From contig JABSRZ010000003.1 in NCBI GenBank assembly GCA_013214705.1, positions 320,437 through 384,436 on the forward strand: DNA of 64,000 bases, given 5' to 3'. Below are positions 19,372 to 22,266 of this stretch, in pieces (within the stretch, counting starts at the first letter, position 1; every line of letters starts with the position of its first letter). The position numbers and the translations under genes were made by a program. The DNA is from Hyphomicrobiales bacterium (GTDB taxonomy: Bacteria; Pseudomonadota; Alphaproteobacteria; Rhizobiales; OSC116). The notes under the pieces were generated by a model. It was given only the letters and a program-made list of their open reading frames with translations, did no database searches and was not told the DNA's origin.

Positions 19372-19577
19372 TCCGCAAGTCCGTTATAAAGCCACCCACT
19401 AACCCAAATAGCGCCAGACTCAAAACCTCAAATATCGAACGCTTACTTGCAAGACGTTATCACGGTGTTGGCTGGGCCATAATGTTTGAACTCAAAAACA
19501 ACATCGGCCAGACCCAATCACGCGCCGATGCAATCGCTGTCGATAGTTTGATTTTAACGCAGCAATCAAATTTTTAA
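19341..19577 (+). pseudogene. 3'-truncated MmcB-like nuclease gene fragment
   Basis: ...IERLLARRYHGVGWAIMFELKNNIGQTQSRADAIAVDS resembles the N-terminal part (E...RADxxA) of MmcB-type nucleases. It stops before the ExK strand, exactly where the ATPase gene ends (19574). Confidence 0.35.
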
Positions 19578-21379
19578 ATTTTTATGTCGATGAAAGTTGG
19601 CATGTTATTGGATGTGCCTGCTTTGACTTTAAACGCAATTTTCATTTTGTCTATGTCTGATGAAAACTCTTCGAATGTTATAAAGCTATACCTCCATGCA
19701 GATAGTGCCGATCTGTGAGTTGTTCTGTTTTGCTTCAGTTGTTCGTCTATCAAAACAAGCGTTTTCTCAAGATTTTTTGTGTCCCCTGCAACCCATTCAG
19801 TTATGGCCTTGCATTGCAGATGATTTATGTCTTTACTGTTTTTAATGTGAATTCCAGCGAATAAATCCTTATCTATAGTGCCCGTATGTGCCCACTTAGC
19901 CATTGCCAAGTTAAACAAATCGGAGTTGTTAGCACCGTTTGCTGCTATTATCTGAGTGCCATATTGGTATGCATCAGAGAATAAGCCTCCAATCATTAAA
20001 TGAAGTAGTTTATTGCGGTATATTTTATCTAGCGGTTGCTTCACAAATAACTTCGCTAGCAATTTTTTCGCGTTTGTATGCATAGATATTAAATCACCAA
20101 TAACGAAATAACTTGTATCCGTCATGTCCAGTGAAGTAATAGTCGAAATAATTTTATCTTCATTTTGTTCTAGTATTAACAAAACCCTTAAACTTCTTCT
20201 TAAGTCGTTGTCACTTTCAAATCGGTGCTCAAAAGACCTCAAACAAGCATCGAGTGCCTCTTCATGTTTGCCAAGCAACAAACTCAAAGGCGCAATATGT
20301 GAGGCGGCCCGAGTACAGCTATAGCGTTCAGCTAAATAGAAAAAATCAAGAGCAAGTTCGATTTCATTTAAATTGATATGAGCATTTTGGCCCGCATAAT
20401 ACATTATTTCGGAGTCTTCCGAATGATGCAATTTGATTTGTTCTAAGTATTCTACGTCAACAATAGATTCATCAATTAAATCCATCCGTCTAATAGACCC
20501 CAAAGGAACGGTGAGTTTTGCCAACACACCTTCCCGATCTTCAACATTCCCGCTTTGGATGATGCGAGTAAGGTGATGATATTCGAGCGCCAATTTTGTT
20601 TTTGGTCTAGTCAATGAAAATATTTTTTGATCGACTAGGTCCATACTTTCATAATGGTGTATTTTTACAAATGATCTTTTGGGTATTTTAGTTTTTGTTG
20701 AAAGTGAATCCAGAAGATCTTCTAGAATGCCTTTTTCATCATCAGCATGTGGGATTCTGGAAACAACCATATGAATTATCGTATTTCTCTCGTTGTTGTT
20801 TCTAATGTCGTTGACAATTTCGATAAGCCCATCTCTGTTTTGCGCATTTGGAAAAGCCATTGTCACAACAGCATCTGGCAAATGTTTTGTACATATACCA
20901 GCTGTGTCAGTGTGACCCGTTCTCGAGTCAATGAGTACATAGTCAGGTTGTATACCCTGCTCCCATTGAAGTCTTAGGTCTTCAAGCAGTAAATAACCAT
21001 GTTTGTGTGCATACAAATCACGCCAATTCAAGTTGGCCAAATTTTGTGAGTATTTATCGTTTTGATTTCCTGCAGGCATCACATGAAAACTCAGCTTTTC
21101 ATCGCCATGAGTGAGGGTGCATTCATGAATATAATTTTTTATCTTTGGAATTTTTGGGCTTCCGGTATCGAAGCCATGATTATAATCATGGAAAAAATCA
21201 AGCACACCTTTTTTAGCTGCTAGGTTTTGTTCAAAGTGACTGTCAATTCCAGGTGCTTCCAAATCAAAATCAACTAGTAAAACTTTTTTACCCTGTTTTG
21301 CTAGTTGAGTTGCAACATTTATTAGTGCGAGTGTTCGACCAACCCCACCTTTGAAACTATAAAATGTAGTAATATACAT
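19574..21379 (-). CDS. KGGVGR-motif ParA/MinD-like P-loop ATPase with a C-terminal helical-repeat (TPR-like) region
   Basis: FYSFKGGVGRTLALINVATQLAKQGKKVLLVDFDLEAPG (deviant Walker A with Arg). YVLIDSRTGHTD (Walker-B-like). About 300 C-terminal residues have a helical-repeat character. Starts 3 nt after the antitoxin-like gene. Confidence 0.7.
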   Translation of the reverse strand: MYITTFYSFKGGVGRTLALINVATQLAKQGKKVLLVDFDLEAPGIDSHFEQNLAAKKGVLDFFHDYNHGFDTGSPKIPKIKNYIHECTLTHGDEKLSFHVMPAGNQNDKYSQNLANLNWRDLYAHKHGYLLLEDLRLQWEQGIQPDYVLIDSRTGHTDTAGICTKHLPDAVVTMAFPNAQNRDGLIEIVNDIRNNNERNTIIHMVVSRIPHADDEKGILEDLLDSLSTKTKIPKRSFVKIHHYESMDLVDQKIFSLTRPKTKLALEYHHLTRIIQSGNVEDREGVLAKLTVPLGSIRRMDLIDESIVDVEYLEQIKLHHSEDSEIMYYAGQNAHINLNEIELALDFFYLAERYSCTRAASHIAPLSLLLGKHEEALDACLRSFEHRFESDNDLRRSLRVLLILEQNEDKIISTITSLDMTDTSYFVIGDLISMHTNAKKLLAKLFVKQPLDKIYRNKLLHLMIGGLFSDAYQYGTQIIAANGANNSDLFNLAMAKWAHTGTIDKDLFAGIHIKNSKDINHLQCKAITEWVAGDTKNLEKTLVLIDEQLKQNRTTHRSALSAWRYSFITFEEFSSDIDKMKIAFKVKAGTSNNMPTFIDIKI

Positions 21380-21382
21380 GAA

Positions 21383-21910
21383 TCAAAACCTAAATTTTCT
21401 TTCACTGTTTAAGTACGCAGGGTCAGAAATATCGATGACCCATCCAATAACCTCCTCGGGTTGAAATTTTTTCATTTCAAGTTCGTTGGAAATTTGTGAA
21501 ATTAGTTTTTGACCGACAGGGTTTCTGAAAACTCTCAATAATCGATCACTACTTACATCTTGAATTATAGACCCTGCTTCCCAACGCCGAATTGACATTT
21601 CAGAAAAGCCAAGACATCCTGCAAATTCGGCAACGCTCAACTTTCCTCGAGTCTTTCTAATTTCGCTTGGAGTTAACCTTTTCAGATGATTGCAAATGGT
21701 ATCATGCATTAACGATTCTGCTCTTTTTTCGAGCCAATCAACTCCACAATCATCACAGTAAAATGAATGAAGAGATACTGATAATACGGTATCTTCTCCT
21801 CTTCCTGCAGGAAATTCTTCTTGTATCAGTTCCATGTTCGGGTTCAACCGATTGCAAGCAGGACAATGTTCTTCGATGTCATGTAATGTACTTATATTTG
21901 AATTTGTCAT
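21383..21910 (-). CDS. MqsA-family antitoxin-like protein (zinc ribbon plus HTH) with a C-terminal extension of about 45 aa
   Basis: CPACN...FYCDDCG zinc ribbon. TPSEIRKTRGKLSVAEFAGCLGFSEMSIRRWEAG is an HTH. The start overlaps the toxin stop (ATGA). Confidence 0.7.
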   Translation of the reverse strand: MTNSNISTLHDIEEHCPACNRLNPNMELIQEEFPAGRGEDTVLSVSLHSFYCDDCGVDWLEKRAESLMHDTICNHLKRLTPSEIRKTRGKLSVAEFAGCLGFSEMSIRRWEAGSIIQDVSSDRLLRVFRNPVGQKLISQISNELEMKKFQPEEVIGWVIDISDPAYLNSERKFRF

Positions 21911-22266
21911 ATTTTATCCTTTTTTTCTGAAATGTGAAAACTTCTTCCAATCACACAACCACTCACGATCTCGAATTTAACATATAATTTTTCTACGCTG
22001 TCTTTTATTGGAATTTCAAAATAATAACCTGTCCCGTTGGGCGGGTGGTCGAGTGACATTTCGAACACCTCTACCCCCTTACTAAGCTCATCCTCTAAAA
22101 GTTGTCTTGCTGAATAATGTGTGTGGTAATCTTCAAATCCATCGCTTCTTTTAACAGTTTGGGGCACCCAATTAGTTGGTCGCCGCTTCCCTCCCAATTG
22201 CCAACGCCCTTTTTTTAGCGCAATCAAGGTCTCTTTTCGCAATTCACAAGTATATGGCTTTGGCAC
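21907..22266 (-). CDS. MqsR-family toxin-like protein
   Basis: GTG start at 22266 behind AAGGA. 119 aa. The C-terminus LYVKFEIVSGCVIGRSFHISEKK resembles the MqsR C-terminus (recollected VYLKITVIHDVLIVSFKEK). Toxin-first order, as in mqsRA. Confidence 0.55.
   Translation of the reverse strand: MPKPYTCELRKETLIALKKGRWQLGGKRRPTNWVPQTVKRSDGFEDYHTHYSARQLLEDELSKGVEVFEMSLDHPPNGTGYYFEIPIKDSVEKLYVKFEIVSGCVIGRSFHISEKKDKI

Follow-up and report, generated by a model that had tools for sequence, protein, structure and literature searches.

A conserved three-gene cassette in a prophage encodes a predicted MqsR-like toxin, an MqsA-like protein and a KGGVGR-variant ParA-type ATPase

What is a ParA-like ATPase with a helical-repeat tail doing behind a toxin-antitoxin-like gene pair in a prophage? 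The question is raised by three minus-strand genes, called g1, g2 and g3 here in order of transcription, in a 64-kb stretch of DNA (the window) from a Hyphomicrobiales bacterium. The original prediction described them as an operon of an MqsR-like toxin, an extended MqsA-like antitoxin and a KGGVGR ATPase. It proposed that the ATPase fills the place held by the chaperone in toxin-antitoxin-chaperone (TAC) systems. To this end, we examined the sequence, the families, the predicted structures and the genomic distribution of the three genes. The observation itself held in every detail, while its interpretation was only partly supported, since the anatomy was borne out but the mechanism remains an inference. 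The same cassette, apparently never studied, occurs in hundreds of bacterial species and looks like a new kind of switch-controlled toxin-antitoxin or anti-phage module.

Results

Is the three-gene unit real? The g1 gene lies at 21907-22266 and encodes 119 aa from a GTG start at 22266, with a Shine-Dalgarno-like AAGGA at 22273-22277, 6 nt before the start. The g2 gene lies at 21383-21910 and encodes 175 aa, and its ATG overlaps the TGA of g1 as ATGA at 21907-21910. The g3 gene lies at 19574-21379 and encodes 601 aa, separated from the g2 stop by a gap of 3 nt (21380-21382). The peptides on which the original prediction was based are all present, namely the C-terminal LYVKFEIVSGCVIGRSFHISEKKDKI of g1, the CPAC...CDDC, LSVAEFAGCLGFSEMSIRRWEAG and terminal ERKFRF of g2, and the FKGGVGRT, DFDLEAPG and YVLIDSRTGHTD of g3. 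Public gene calls on assemblies holding the same DNA give the same three products of 119, 175 and 601 aa. The GC content is 0.365-0.375 across the cassette against 0.40-0.45 in the flanks, so the AT-rich island that had been claimed is real but modest. The prophage context is given by genes for a CI-like repressor (4185-4877), a CII-like protein (5416-5934) and a replication initiator (8614-9861) on one side, and for a terminase (25613-27445) and a portal (27685-29235) on the other.

Is the trio more than a local coincidence? Among the 80 closest g3 homologues in species-representative genomes from many phyla, 78 have g2 and 65 have a g1-family gene directly upstream, all on the same strand and with gaps mostly of -4 to +20 nt. 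How often the homologues of the ATPase neighbour such a pair had been set beforehand as a test, and these counts answer it in favour of a conserved unit. Nothing else is conserved around the cassette, as no flank family is shared by more than 4 of the 80 loci. At least 594 species-representative genomes carry a g3 relative, mostly on chromosomes at unrelated sites. By contrast, only 9 of 72,556 plasmids carry a g3 relative, and only 4 of those are full length; a few copies lie on Rhizobium megaplasmids. The cassette is also rare in phage collections, with 7 loci in IMG/VR and none in 50,697 GenBank phages, thus phage carriage is not typical. In viral contigs, 4 of 4 full-length g3 genes have g2 and 3 of 4 have g1.

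The g1 protein has no match to any Pfam, NCBIfam, PADLOC or PHROG model, none of 32 family members has any Pfam hit at E up to 0.1, and a profile comparison with E. coli MqsR by hhalign gives 15 columns at a probability of 1.3%. Thus membership of the MqsR family (PF15723) is not supported at the sequence level, and the MqsR-like reading is supported by structure only. The AlphaFold2 model of g1 (pLDDT 92.7) has a predicted RelE/BECR-type alpha/beta fold. Its best match in the PDB is E. coli MqsR (3hi2_B), with a TM-score of 0.56 normalised by the query and 0.66 by the PDB chain and a probability of 0.98, while all other PDB hits have a TM-score of about 0.38 or less. It should be noticed that the Foldseek E-value of this match is only 0.11 and that no residue-level superposition underlies it. 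The helices and strands follow in the order of those in MqsR, a comparison made without coordinates. In the g1 family P35, Y95, K97, R108, S109, F110 and H111 are invariant, giving a C-terminus of the form Y-x-K...G-R-S-F-H in sequences only about 30% identical. By motif alignment, Y95-x-K97 and R108-S-F-H111 line up with Y81-L-K83 and S94-F-K96 of MqsR, so that Y95 corresponds to Y81 and His replaces K96. Of the residues K56, Q68, Y81 and K96 needed for MqsR toxicity (PMC2791442), counterparts of K56 and Q68 were not found in g1.

The g2 protein combines a zinc ribbon with C16, C19, C52 and C55 (about nt 21740-21865) and an XRE-type HTH at residues about 80-130 (about nt 21521-21673). C16, C52 and C55 are invariant and C19 is conserved in at least 90% of sequences, and the HTH core R109-W-E-x-G113 is invariant. 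The MqsA model TIGR03830 matches at E 8e-14 with 51.5 bits, below its curated cut-off of 61.8, and PF15731 matches at E 2e-4 with 22 bits against a cut-off of 30. A profile of 40 family members matches residues 3-128 of E. coli MqsA (3gn5), covering both domains, at E 4.8e-8, and RefSeq names homologues as type II TA system antitoxin MqsA family protein. This profile has 188 positions and MqsA stops aligning at about position 141. The rest is a C-terminal tail of 46 residues (residues 130-175, nt 21386-21523) which E. coli MqsA lacks. The tail carries two short motifs, KKFQP (in the family [RK]F[RQ]x[LI]) and the terminal RKFRF (in the family F-x-L-R-x-x-A-A), and is basic and hydrophobic with a conserved Arg.

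The g3 protein consists of two parts. The N-terminal domain, residues 1 to about 290 (nt 20510-21379), is a KGGVGR-variant ParA/MinD-fold (SIMIBI) NTPase and scores 171.4 bits over residues 2-192 with NF047398, against a cut-off of 90. It has the Walker A motif K10-G-G-V-G-R15-T at nt 21332-21352, the motif D37-F-D39-L-E-A-P-G, and a Walker B and switch region D151-S-R-T-G-H-T-D. Across 58 sequences only about 35% identical to the window protein, G11, G12, G14 and R15 are invariant, K10 and V13 are at least 90% conserved, and K10, D37/D39, D151 and the switch region are invariant or nearly so. The signature Lys is therefore kept, but the P-loop Lys of canonical ParA/MinD ATPases is invariantly Arg, and the equivalog models for MinD and ParA score only 26-27 bits against cut-offs of 180-213. 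The fold matches ParA, MinD, Soj and BcsQ with TM-scores of 0.6-0.73 normalised by the PDB chain, and the delta structure 2oze is among the hits. The C-terminal domain, residues about 300-601 (nt 19577-20482), is predicted to be all-helical with about 13 helices of TPR-like repeats. Residues 300-480 are variable, while residues 481-575 are conserved (FNxAMAxW, NxxQC and a hairpin FSxWRY). Many homologues have Pfam TPR hits, but the window protein itself has none.

Does the cassette carry its own control region? A palindrome, ATCATATGAT, was found with up to 1 mismatch upstream of g1 in 58 of 64 loci, often as two copies. Its density is 4.16 per kb there against 0.009 per kb elsewhere, about 460 times the background. 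In the window, the first putative operator (O1) is a perfect 20-bp palindrome, AAACTAACATATGTTAGTTT, at 22377-22396 with the core AACATATGTT at 22382-22391. It lies upstream of a predicted -35 hexamer TTGACA at 22345-22350 on the minus strand. The second (O2), at 22321-22330, reads ATCATATGTT on the gene strand and contains the predicted -10 hexamer TATGTT (22321-22326). The predicted promoter matches 10 of 12 consensus positions with an 18-nt spacer, by a consensus scan only. The two operators are the only AWCATATGWT sites in the 64-kb window and lie 61 bp apart.

The tail of g2 and the C-domain of g3 vary together. Cassettes can be divided into types A, B and C by their first gene, which varies while g2 and g3 persist. 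Type A and B cassettes share the F-x-L tail motif and the g3 motifs FNxxMA and xSxWxY, even though the first gene of type B is different, whereas type C cassettes have a different tail (NPARxFxL) and a different g3 C-domain. This is the only indirect support, at present, for the proposals that the ATPase binds the antitoxin tail, acts as a nucleotide-dependent sensor and frees the RNase for abortive infection.

Discussion

What might the cassette do? The best explanation is that it is a self-contained, autoregulated, three-component toxin-antitoxin-type conflict module, carried here as a prophage moron; we put the probability of this reading at roughly 0.55. In this view g1 would be an MqsR-fold endoribonuclease toxin. 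The g2 protein would neutralise g1 through its zinc-ribbon domain, repress the operon as a dimer bound to the two ATCATATG-type palindromes, one of which covers the -10 box, and present a tail with two short linear motifs. The g3 protein would be a ParA/MinD-type nucleotide switch. As the signature Lys and the catalytic Asp residues are kept while the P-loop Lys is always Arg, it probably binds ATP and hydrolyses it slowly. Against this reading, an Arg in place of the P-loop Lys could mean an inactive NTPase, and Kaur et al. 2020 predict that the MinD/ParA-like domains found in conflict systems are inactive (PMC7159879), though these may or may not be of the KGGVGR kind. The conserved last repeats, or the ATPase dimer, would hold the g2 tail, and the variable middle repeats would sense a trigger such as a phage protein. 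A change of nucleotide or oligomeric state in g3 would then remove or destabilise g2 and free the RNase, giving growth arrest, abortive infection or superinfection exclusion. What the analysis itself establishes is the families and folds of the three proteins (for g1 the fold of a predicted model only, and for g2 the MqsA family by a profile match and by models scoring below their cut-offs), their strict linkage, the conservation of the operator sequence and the mobility of the cassette. With no experiment bearing on this cassette, the RNase activity and toxicity of g1, neutralisation and DNA binding by g2, dependence of g2 on g3 through the tail, the nucleotide-dependent sensing, the trigger and the phage phenotype are inferred. 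The proposals of the original prediction that the ATPase acts as a sensor and frees the RNase for abortive infection belong to this inferred part, and remain plausible.

Could the cassette be explained otherwise? One alternative, which we consider unlikely, is that g3 is a passive stabiliser of the antitoxin, like the SecB-like chaperone of TAC modules. It would bind the tail as a chaperone-addiction-like segment and protect g2 from aggregation or proteolysis until something titrates g3 away, and the nucleotide state would not be a signal. The extra tail and the strictly linked third gene are in accordance with this, known TAC modules work in this way, and the change of Lys to Arg might mean that catalysis is lost. 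However, g3 has a ParA/MinD fold and no SecB similarity, and no PADLOC model, including any for TAC systems, matches g1 or g2. The conservation of the nucleotide site in sequences so divergent argues for a working site rather than a decayed one. A ParA-adaptor positioning or maintenance module, resembling delta/omega with epsilon-zeta on pSM19035, is also doubtful. Here g2 would be a DNA-bound adaptor whose tail stimulates the g3 ATPase, as ParG, ParB or MinE peptides do, the palindromes would act as a mini-centromere, and g1 would serve post-segregational killing. The ParA/Soj/delta fold, the probably dimeric DNA-binding nature of g2 (as in MqsA), the repeated operators and the megaplasmid copies speak for it. 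Against it are the rarity on plasmids, the mostly chromosomal copies at unrelated sites, the presence of only one or two operator copies and a partner that is MqsA-like rather than of the ParB type. Moreover, partition ParAs are not known to have a TPR-like domain or a P-loop Arg.

It is equally doubtful that the trio is no toxin-antitoxin system at all, with g1 a non-toxic adaptor or regulator of RelE-like fold in a transcriptional or signalling module. The lack of any toxin HMM match and of K56 and Q68 equivalents leaves room for this, and fold similarity alone does not prove RNase activity. Yet the invariant polar and aromatic C-terminal residues (Y, K, R, S, F and H) sit, by motif alignment, where MqsR has two of its four toxicity residues, and g1 is paired, toxin first and translationally coupled, with an MqsA-like protein. 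The first gene also varies in type while g2 and g3 persist, as is often seen when effectors are exchanged in conflict systems. That g3 is merely an independent neighbour of an ordinary two-gene MqsRA-like pair has nothing in its favour beyond the existence of such pairs, and is effectively refuted by the linkage, the short gaps and overlaps, and a tail that occurs in this context and varies with the g3 type.

How does the cassette compare with known systems? Searches of the literature and of defence-system models found no description of it, consistent with the statement of the original prediction that the combination had not been characterised. With E. coli MqsR/MqsA it shares the toxin-first order with overlapping genes, the best structural match of the g1 model, the C-terminal Y-x-K...S-F-[K/H] motif and palindromic operators in its own promoter. 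It differs in the undetectable sequence relation of g1, the substituted or unidentified toxicity residues, the tail of the antitoxin, the conserved third gene, and an operator like ATCATATGAT instead of the ACCT...AGGT type of E. coli. With the TAC systems HigBAC, MqsRAC and CmdTAC it shares three genes, a C-terminal extension of the antitoxin and a third protein proposed to control antitoxin stability. An anti-phage role with a phage structural protein as trigger is proven for HigBAC (cited in PMC11980606). The third protein here is not a SecB-like chaperone, so the analogy is functional only, and any role of the tail is inferred. Type Ib partition ATPases with small DNA-binding adaptors (ParF/ParG, delta/omega) likewise join a ParA-fold ATPase to a small DNA-binding autorepressor with a flexible tail, linked on pSM19035 to a toxin-antitoxin pair, but there the adaptor is ribbon-helix-helix and the P-loop has Lys, and the large helical-repeat domain of g3 is a further difference.

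STAND/Avs-type NTPase-TPR proteins have a similar logic, an NTPase switch fused to a repeat array with a variable surface and coupled to a toxic effector. Their NTPase is STAND AAA+-like, while that of g3 is of the dimerising SIMIBI class, and here the effector would be a separate toxin held by a separate antitoxin. This comparison gives a further scenario, possible but tentative, in which the cassette defines a widespread, so far unstudied class of immune or abortive-infection switch. A dimerising SIMIBI NTPase with a natural Lys-to-Arg P-loop and a diversifying TPR-like sensor would take the pattern-recognition role that STAND NTPases have elsewhere, and would transmit the signal by seizing or releasing the tail of an MqsA-type antitoxin-repressor. 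If so, it would license a new family of MqsR-fold RNases and de-repress the operon at the same time.

There are some further links to conflict systems. The NF047398 entry describes only a domain, with no function or partner genes attached. The g3 ATPase core also matches the PADLOC defence candidate PDC-M28B at 2e-29. The better-matching model (PDLC04559) has about 130 positions before the ATPase core and none matching the repeat tail, and no model of a PDC-M28 partner matches g1 or g2. Of the two components of PDC-M28, only PDC-M28B models match, and only the ATPase core of g3. The same ATPase domain is fused to TIR elsewhere. The flanking genes are a mixture of housekeeping and defence genes, without an enrichment statistic, and some loci adjoin DISARM, restriction-modification, Hachiman or CBASS genes.

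The operon and its prophage setting

The ORF list and the sequence show three genes on the minus strand. The gene g1 is at 21907-22266, encodes 119 aa and has a GTG start at 22266 with AAGGA at 22273-22277. The gene g2 is at 21383-21910 and encodes 175 aa, and its ATG overlaps the g1 stop as ATGA at 21907-21910. The gene g3 is at 19574-21379, encodes 601 aa and begins 3 nt after the g2 stop. All peptides quoted in the original prediction are present, and its observation of a compact three-gene unit is confirmed. Public gene calls on assemblies that hold the same DNA give the same three products. 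Word-indexed protein searches with g1 and g2 found only the proteins themselves, which are deposited as hypothetical proteins of a Rhizobiales MAG. The GC content is 0.365-0.375 over the cassette and 0.40-0.45 around it.

The setting is a lambdoid prophage. The early genes lie to the left, including a CI-like repressor, a CII-like gene, a replication initiator and several methyltransferases. To the right lie a tail-completion-like gene, the large terminase, the portal, an S49 protease and a capsid E gene. The cassette therefore sits in the moron region between the early and late modules, as was originally predicted. Next to it in the same moron region, a gene at 16821-18752 (+) encodes a 643-aa protein with a hydrophobic, signal-like N-terminus and a Vps62 (PF06101) domain (E 1.6e-11). 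A 65-aa ORF at 22683-22880 (+) is transcribed divergently from the cassette promoter; it matches phrog_8557 (E 9e-14), and by eye it resembles a small ribbon-helix-helix regulator. The prophage also carries three DNA-methyltransferase-like genes, at 1894-3435 (-), 9858-10721 (+) and 13612-14289 (+), one of them D12-class N6-adenine, which may be an anti-restriction load. A megablast search with window positions 16000-26000 against GenBank phages gave no match.

Families and predicted folds of the three proteins

What kind of protein is encoded by g1? It matches nothing in Pfam, NCBIfam, PADLOC or PHROGs. An exhaustive HMMER search was needed to find its family, and gave 137 representatives, mostly of 110-130 aa. 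Their alignment has invariant P35, Y95, K97, R108, S109, F110 and H111, which gives a C-terminal Y-x-K...G-R-S-F-H signature. None of 32 family members has any Pfam hit. A search of PDB sequences with a g1 profile gave nothing, and an hhalign comparison with E. coli MqsR, using an approximate MqsR sequence, was insignificant. To look beyond sequence similarity, a structure was predicted from this alignment with AlphaFold2, and the model is confident, with pLDDT 92.7 and pTM 0.84. Foldseek against the PDB found no hit below E = 1e-3, but one hit stands apart. MqsR in the MqsR:MqsA complex (3hi2_B) has TM 0.56/0.66 and probability 0.98, while all other hits, NTF2-like proteins and RelE itself among them, have TM of about 0.38 or less. 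Foldseek against BFVD gave only weak hits (best E 0.023, TM about 0.5) to uncharacterised phage proteins. The order of helices and strands in the model appears to be the same as in MqsR. Y95-V-K97 and S109-F-H111 line up by motif with MqsR Y81-L-K83 and S94-F-K96, and Y81 and K96 are two of the four residues needed for MqsR toxicity (PMC2791442), while counterparts of the other two, K56 and Q68, were not found in g1. We therefore regard g1 as a new family with a predicted MqsR-like fold and a plausible RNase site. It is not a member of Pfam MqsR.

The protein g2 matches the MqsA-family model TIGR03830 over residues 16-129 (E 8e-14, just below the curated cut-off) and, weakly, PF15731. A profile of 40 family members matches E. 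coli MqsA (3gn5) across both the zinc ribbon and the HTH (E 4.8e-8), while HigA-2 and other XRE proteins match only the HTH. C16, C52 and C55 are invariant, C19 is at least 90% conserved, and the HTH core R-W-E-x-G is invariant. Thus g2 has the architecture of MqsA, apart from an extra tail. MqsA ends where residue 130 of g2 lies, whereas g2 and its relatives continue for 45-60 residues. The tail is poorly conserved overall, but it carries two short motifs, [RK]-F-[RQ]-x-[LI] and, about 20 residues later near the C-terminus, F-x-L-R-x-x-A-A. In the window these are KKFQP and the terminal RKFRF.

For g3, residues 2-192 score 171 bits on NF047398, 'KGGVGR-motif variant AAA ATPase', for which the cut-off is 90, and generic CbiA/ParA models also match. 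The AlphaFold2 model (pLDDT 87.7) has an alpha/beta domain up to about residue 290, followed by about 13 helices (309-550), a small hairpin and a further helix. Foldseek places the N-domain with BcsQ, Soj, ParA, MinD, FlhG and NifH, with TM 0.6-0.73 normalised by the PDB chain. Across 58 sequences that are about 35% identical to the window protein, G11, G12, G14, R15, D37-F-D39-x-E-A-P and D151-S-R-T-G are invariant, and K10 and V13 of the KGGVGR motif are at least 90% conserved. So the signature Lys and the acidic residues of Walker A' and Walker B are kept, and only the P-loop Lys is replaced, always by Arg. By analogy with Lys-to-Arg mutants of the ParA family, it may be inferred that this favours nucleotide binding with slow hydrolysis. 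Conservation is high in the ATPase core, lowest in residues about 281-480, and rises again in residues 481-575 (FNxAMAxW, NxxQC, FSxWRY). The conserved groove of g3 has N490, N519, Q522 and W562. Many homologues carry Pfam TPR hits while the window protein itself does not, so the description of the C-domain as TPR-like rests on the homologues and on the model.

The trio is a conserved and mobile unit

Is this arrangement a local oddity, or do the three genes belong together? There are more than 4,400 homologues of g3 in the protein collection, and the 120 best listed are about 585-635 aa long and nearly all align over almost their whole length. A scan of one genome per species found at least 594 loci. 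The best 80 were kept, from Acidobacteriota, Planctomycetota, Pseudomonadota, Gemmatimonadota, Binatia, Thermodesulfobacteriota, Latescibacterota, Spirochaetia, Bacillota and others. As homologues of g2 were not recovered by the word-indexed search, locus-based profiles were built from first hits. With these profiles, g2 lies directly upstream of g3 in 78 of the 80 loci, and a g1-family gene lies upstream of g2 in 65 of 80. All are on the same strand, and the gaps are mostly between -4 and +20 nt. In several loci (L036, L045, L050, L061 and L064 in our numbering) the g3 reading frame appears shortened (283-456 aa) although g1 and g2 are intact, which could be decay, frameshifts or assembly errors.

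The 13 loci that have g2 but lack a g1-family gene have another gene of 115-130 aa in that position. We refer to cassettes with a g1-family first gene as type A. Culturable hosts of a type A cassette include Rhizobium gallicum (pRgalR602b), Bradyrhizobium sp. STM 3557 and Paludibacillus litoralis. The variant cassettes of type B (loci L019, L037, L052 and L057) and type C (L070, L072, L075-L077 and L079) keep g2 and a KGGVGR ATPase but have a different first gene. The type C first genes, with the C-terminus H-x-H-N-T-G-Y-P-P-L-P, are related to g1 by hhalign (probability 87.6%, 85 columns), while the type B first gene is not detectably related. Neither has a Pfam hit.

A fourth conserved gene was also looked for. 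Clustering of all flanking ORFs shows nothing else conserved, as no flank family occurs in more than 4 of the 80 loci, and the idea was rejected. The nearest flanking genes, taken as a plain listing, are a mixture in which housekeeping genes (acetyl-CoA carboxylase, AcrB) occur alongside defence genes (DISARM DrmMI and DrmD, type I and IIG restriction-modification, HmaA, a CBASS cyclase, mad2, RmrA, PbeA, NsnB and DpdF). As for mobile elements, IMG/VR holds only 7 loci; all 4 full-length g3 genes there have g2, and 3 have g1. GenBank phages hold none. Only 9 of 72,556 plasmids carry a relative, and 4 of those are full length. On the plasmids RefSeq names the pair 'type II TA system antitoxin MqsA family protein' and 'AAA family ATPase' or 'ParA family protein'.

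A conserved operator upstream of g1

The window promoter has a predicted TTGACA, an 18-nt spacer and TATGTT (22350-22321). It also has a perfect 20-bp palindrome (22377-22396) and a related site over the -10 box. To see whether such sites are shared, palindromes were sought upstream of g1 in the other loci, and a common core was revealed. ATCATATGAT with up to one mismatch occurs within about 250 nt upstream of g1 in 58 of 64 type A loci, often as two copies that are 41-52 or about 72 bp apart. Its density is 4.16 per kb there, against 0.009 per kb in the remaining roughly 700 kb of locus sequence. It is absent upstream of all 13 loci that lack a g1-family first gene, the type B and C cassettes among them.

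In the window the only two AWCATATGWT sites in 64 kb are at 22321-22330 and 22382-22391, 61 bp apart in this promoter. Both differ from the family consensus ATCATATGAT. One carries a symmetric change in both half-sites (AACATATGTT), and the other, which contains the predicted -10 hexamer, is a hybrid (ATCATATGTT). This suggests a shifted DNA specificity of this g2. The comparison as a whole is strong evidence that the g2 HTH binds the palindrome and represses its own operon, as MqsA does, though the binding itself is inferred. Since the ATCATATGAT operator is conserved across phyla, it offers a ready-made handle for experiments.

Discussion

How does the module most likely work? The sequence analysis establishes the families and predicted folds of the three proteins, the translational coupling and strict linkage of their genes, the conserved operator, and the movement of the cassette as a unit. 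That g1 is an endoribonuclease toxin, that the g2 Zn-ribbon domain neutralises it as in 3hi2, that the g2 dimer represses the promoter, and that the tail connects g2 to g3, are inferences. The interpretation in the original prediction, in which the ATPase acts through the antitoxin tail to free an RNase, is thus partly supported, for the anatomy is borne out while the mechanism remains inferred. The only evidence on the connection between tail and g3 is co-variation. Type A and B cassettes share the F-x-L tail motif and the g3 motifs FNxxMA and xSxWxY although their first genes differ, while type C cassettes have another tail motif (NPARxFxL) and a g3 C-domain that lacks those motifs. The numbers are small, and a strict expression for the tail motif, F.L[RK], was too narrow for a contingency count to be a valid test, so that only the qualitative contrast of types A and B against type C is used. 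The tail might dock in the conserved last repeats, as TPR domains bind peptides, or at the ATPase dimer, as ParB, ParG or MinE peptides do.

The variable middle repeats are what one expects of a surface that recognises a changing ligand, and the intact nucleotide site argues for a switch rather than a dead domain. Our preferred model is therefore a nucleotide-gated controller of the antitoxin, which would free the RNase upon a trigger and give abortive infection or exclusion when carried by a prophage. We put the probability of this general scheme at about 0.55, and that of any single step much lower. Some context is in accordance with it. The g3 ATPase core matches the PADLOC defence candidate PDC-M28B. 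The same ATPase domain is fused to TIR on a Sinorhizobium chiapasense plasmid (NZ_CP133151.1, 38587-40791), where a 734-aa protein annotated as TIR domain-containing matches the KGGVGR ATPase domain in its N-terminal part (about 200 residues, from its third codon), with a second TIR gene nearby; this is another conflict-type architecture for the ATPase. Further, MinD/ParA-like domains, which may or may not be of the same family, are reported by Kaur et al. 2020 among effector domains of conflict systems, where those authors predict them to be inactive (PMC7159879).

Other explanations should be considered. The third protein might be a purely TAC-like stabiliser of the antitoxin without nucleotide signalling, which is possible but hard to square with the invariant nucleotide-site residues. 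A partition or positioning module of the delta/omega type would fit the fold and the tailed DNA-binding partner, but not the near absence from plasmids or the scattered chromosomal sites, and we consider a role in plasmid partition unlikely. A non-toxic g1 seems doubtful but is not excluded by sequence and structure prediction alone, whereas chance adjacency of the three genes is excluded by the linkage data.

How does the module compare with known systems? It would work like an MqsRA pair extended to three parts, as TAC systems are, but it lacks the defining TAC feature, a SecB-like chaperone, and no PADLOC model, including any for toxin-antitoxin-chaperone systems, matches g1 or g2. The g1 family is not recognised by the MqsR HMM although its predicted fold agrees with MqsR, and it adds a predicted MqsR-fold toxin family that is absent from Pfam. 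g3 belongs to the KGGVGR domain family, which is named only for its motif and had no functional context that we could find, the closest defence-model match being only a candidate system (PDC-M28B). A recent survey of RelE/ParE-superfamily toxins that started from Pfam families does not include this cassette (PMC11980606), and full-text searches for the KGGVGR motif, for PDC-M28 and for combinations of MqsA, ParA and TPR returned nothing relevant. The present analysis gives one large branch of these ATPases fixed partners and a testable role. If the ATPase controls the antitoxin through its tail, this would be a third way of gating a type II toxin, alongside proteolysis and SecB-type chaperone addiction, and also a new NTPase class in bacterial immune sensing. 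Carriage on a prophage makes the cassette a candidate superinfection-exclusion gene set. The same cassette, with the same late genes, is also assembled on a separate 26.6-kb contig from another sequencing run (Logan SRR7648326_10309).
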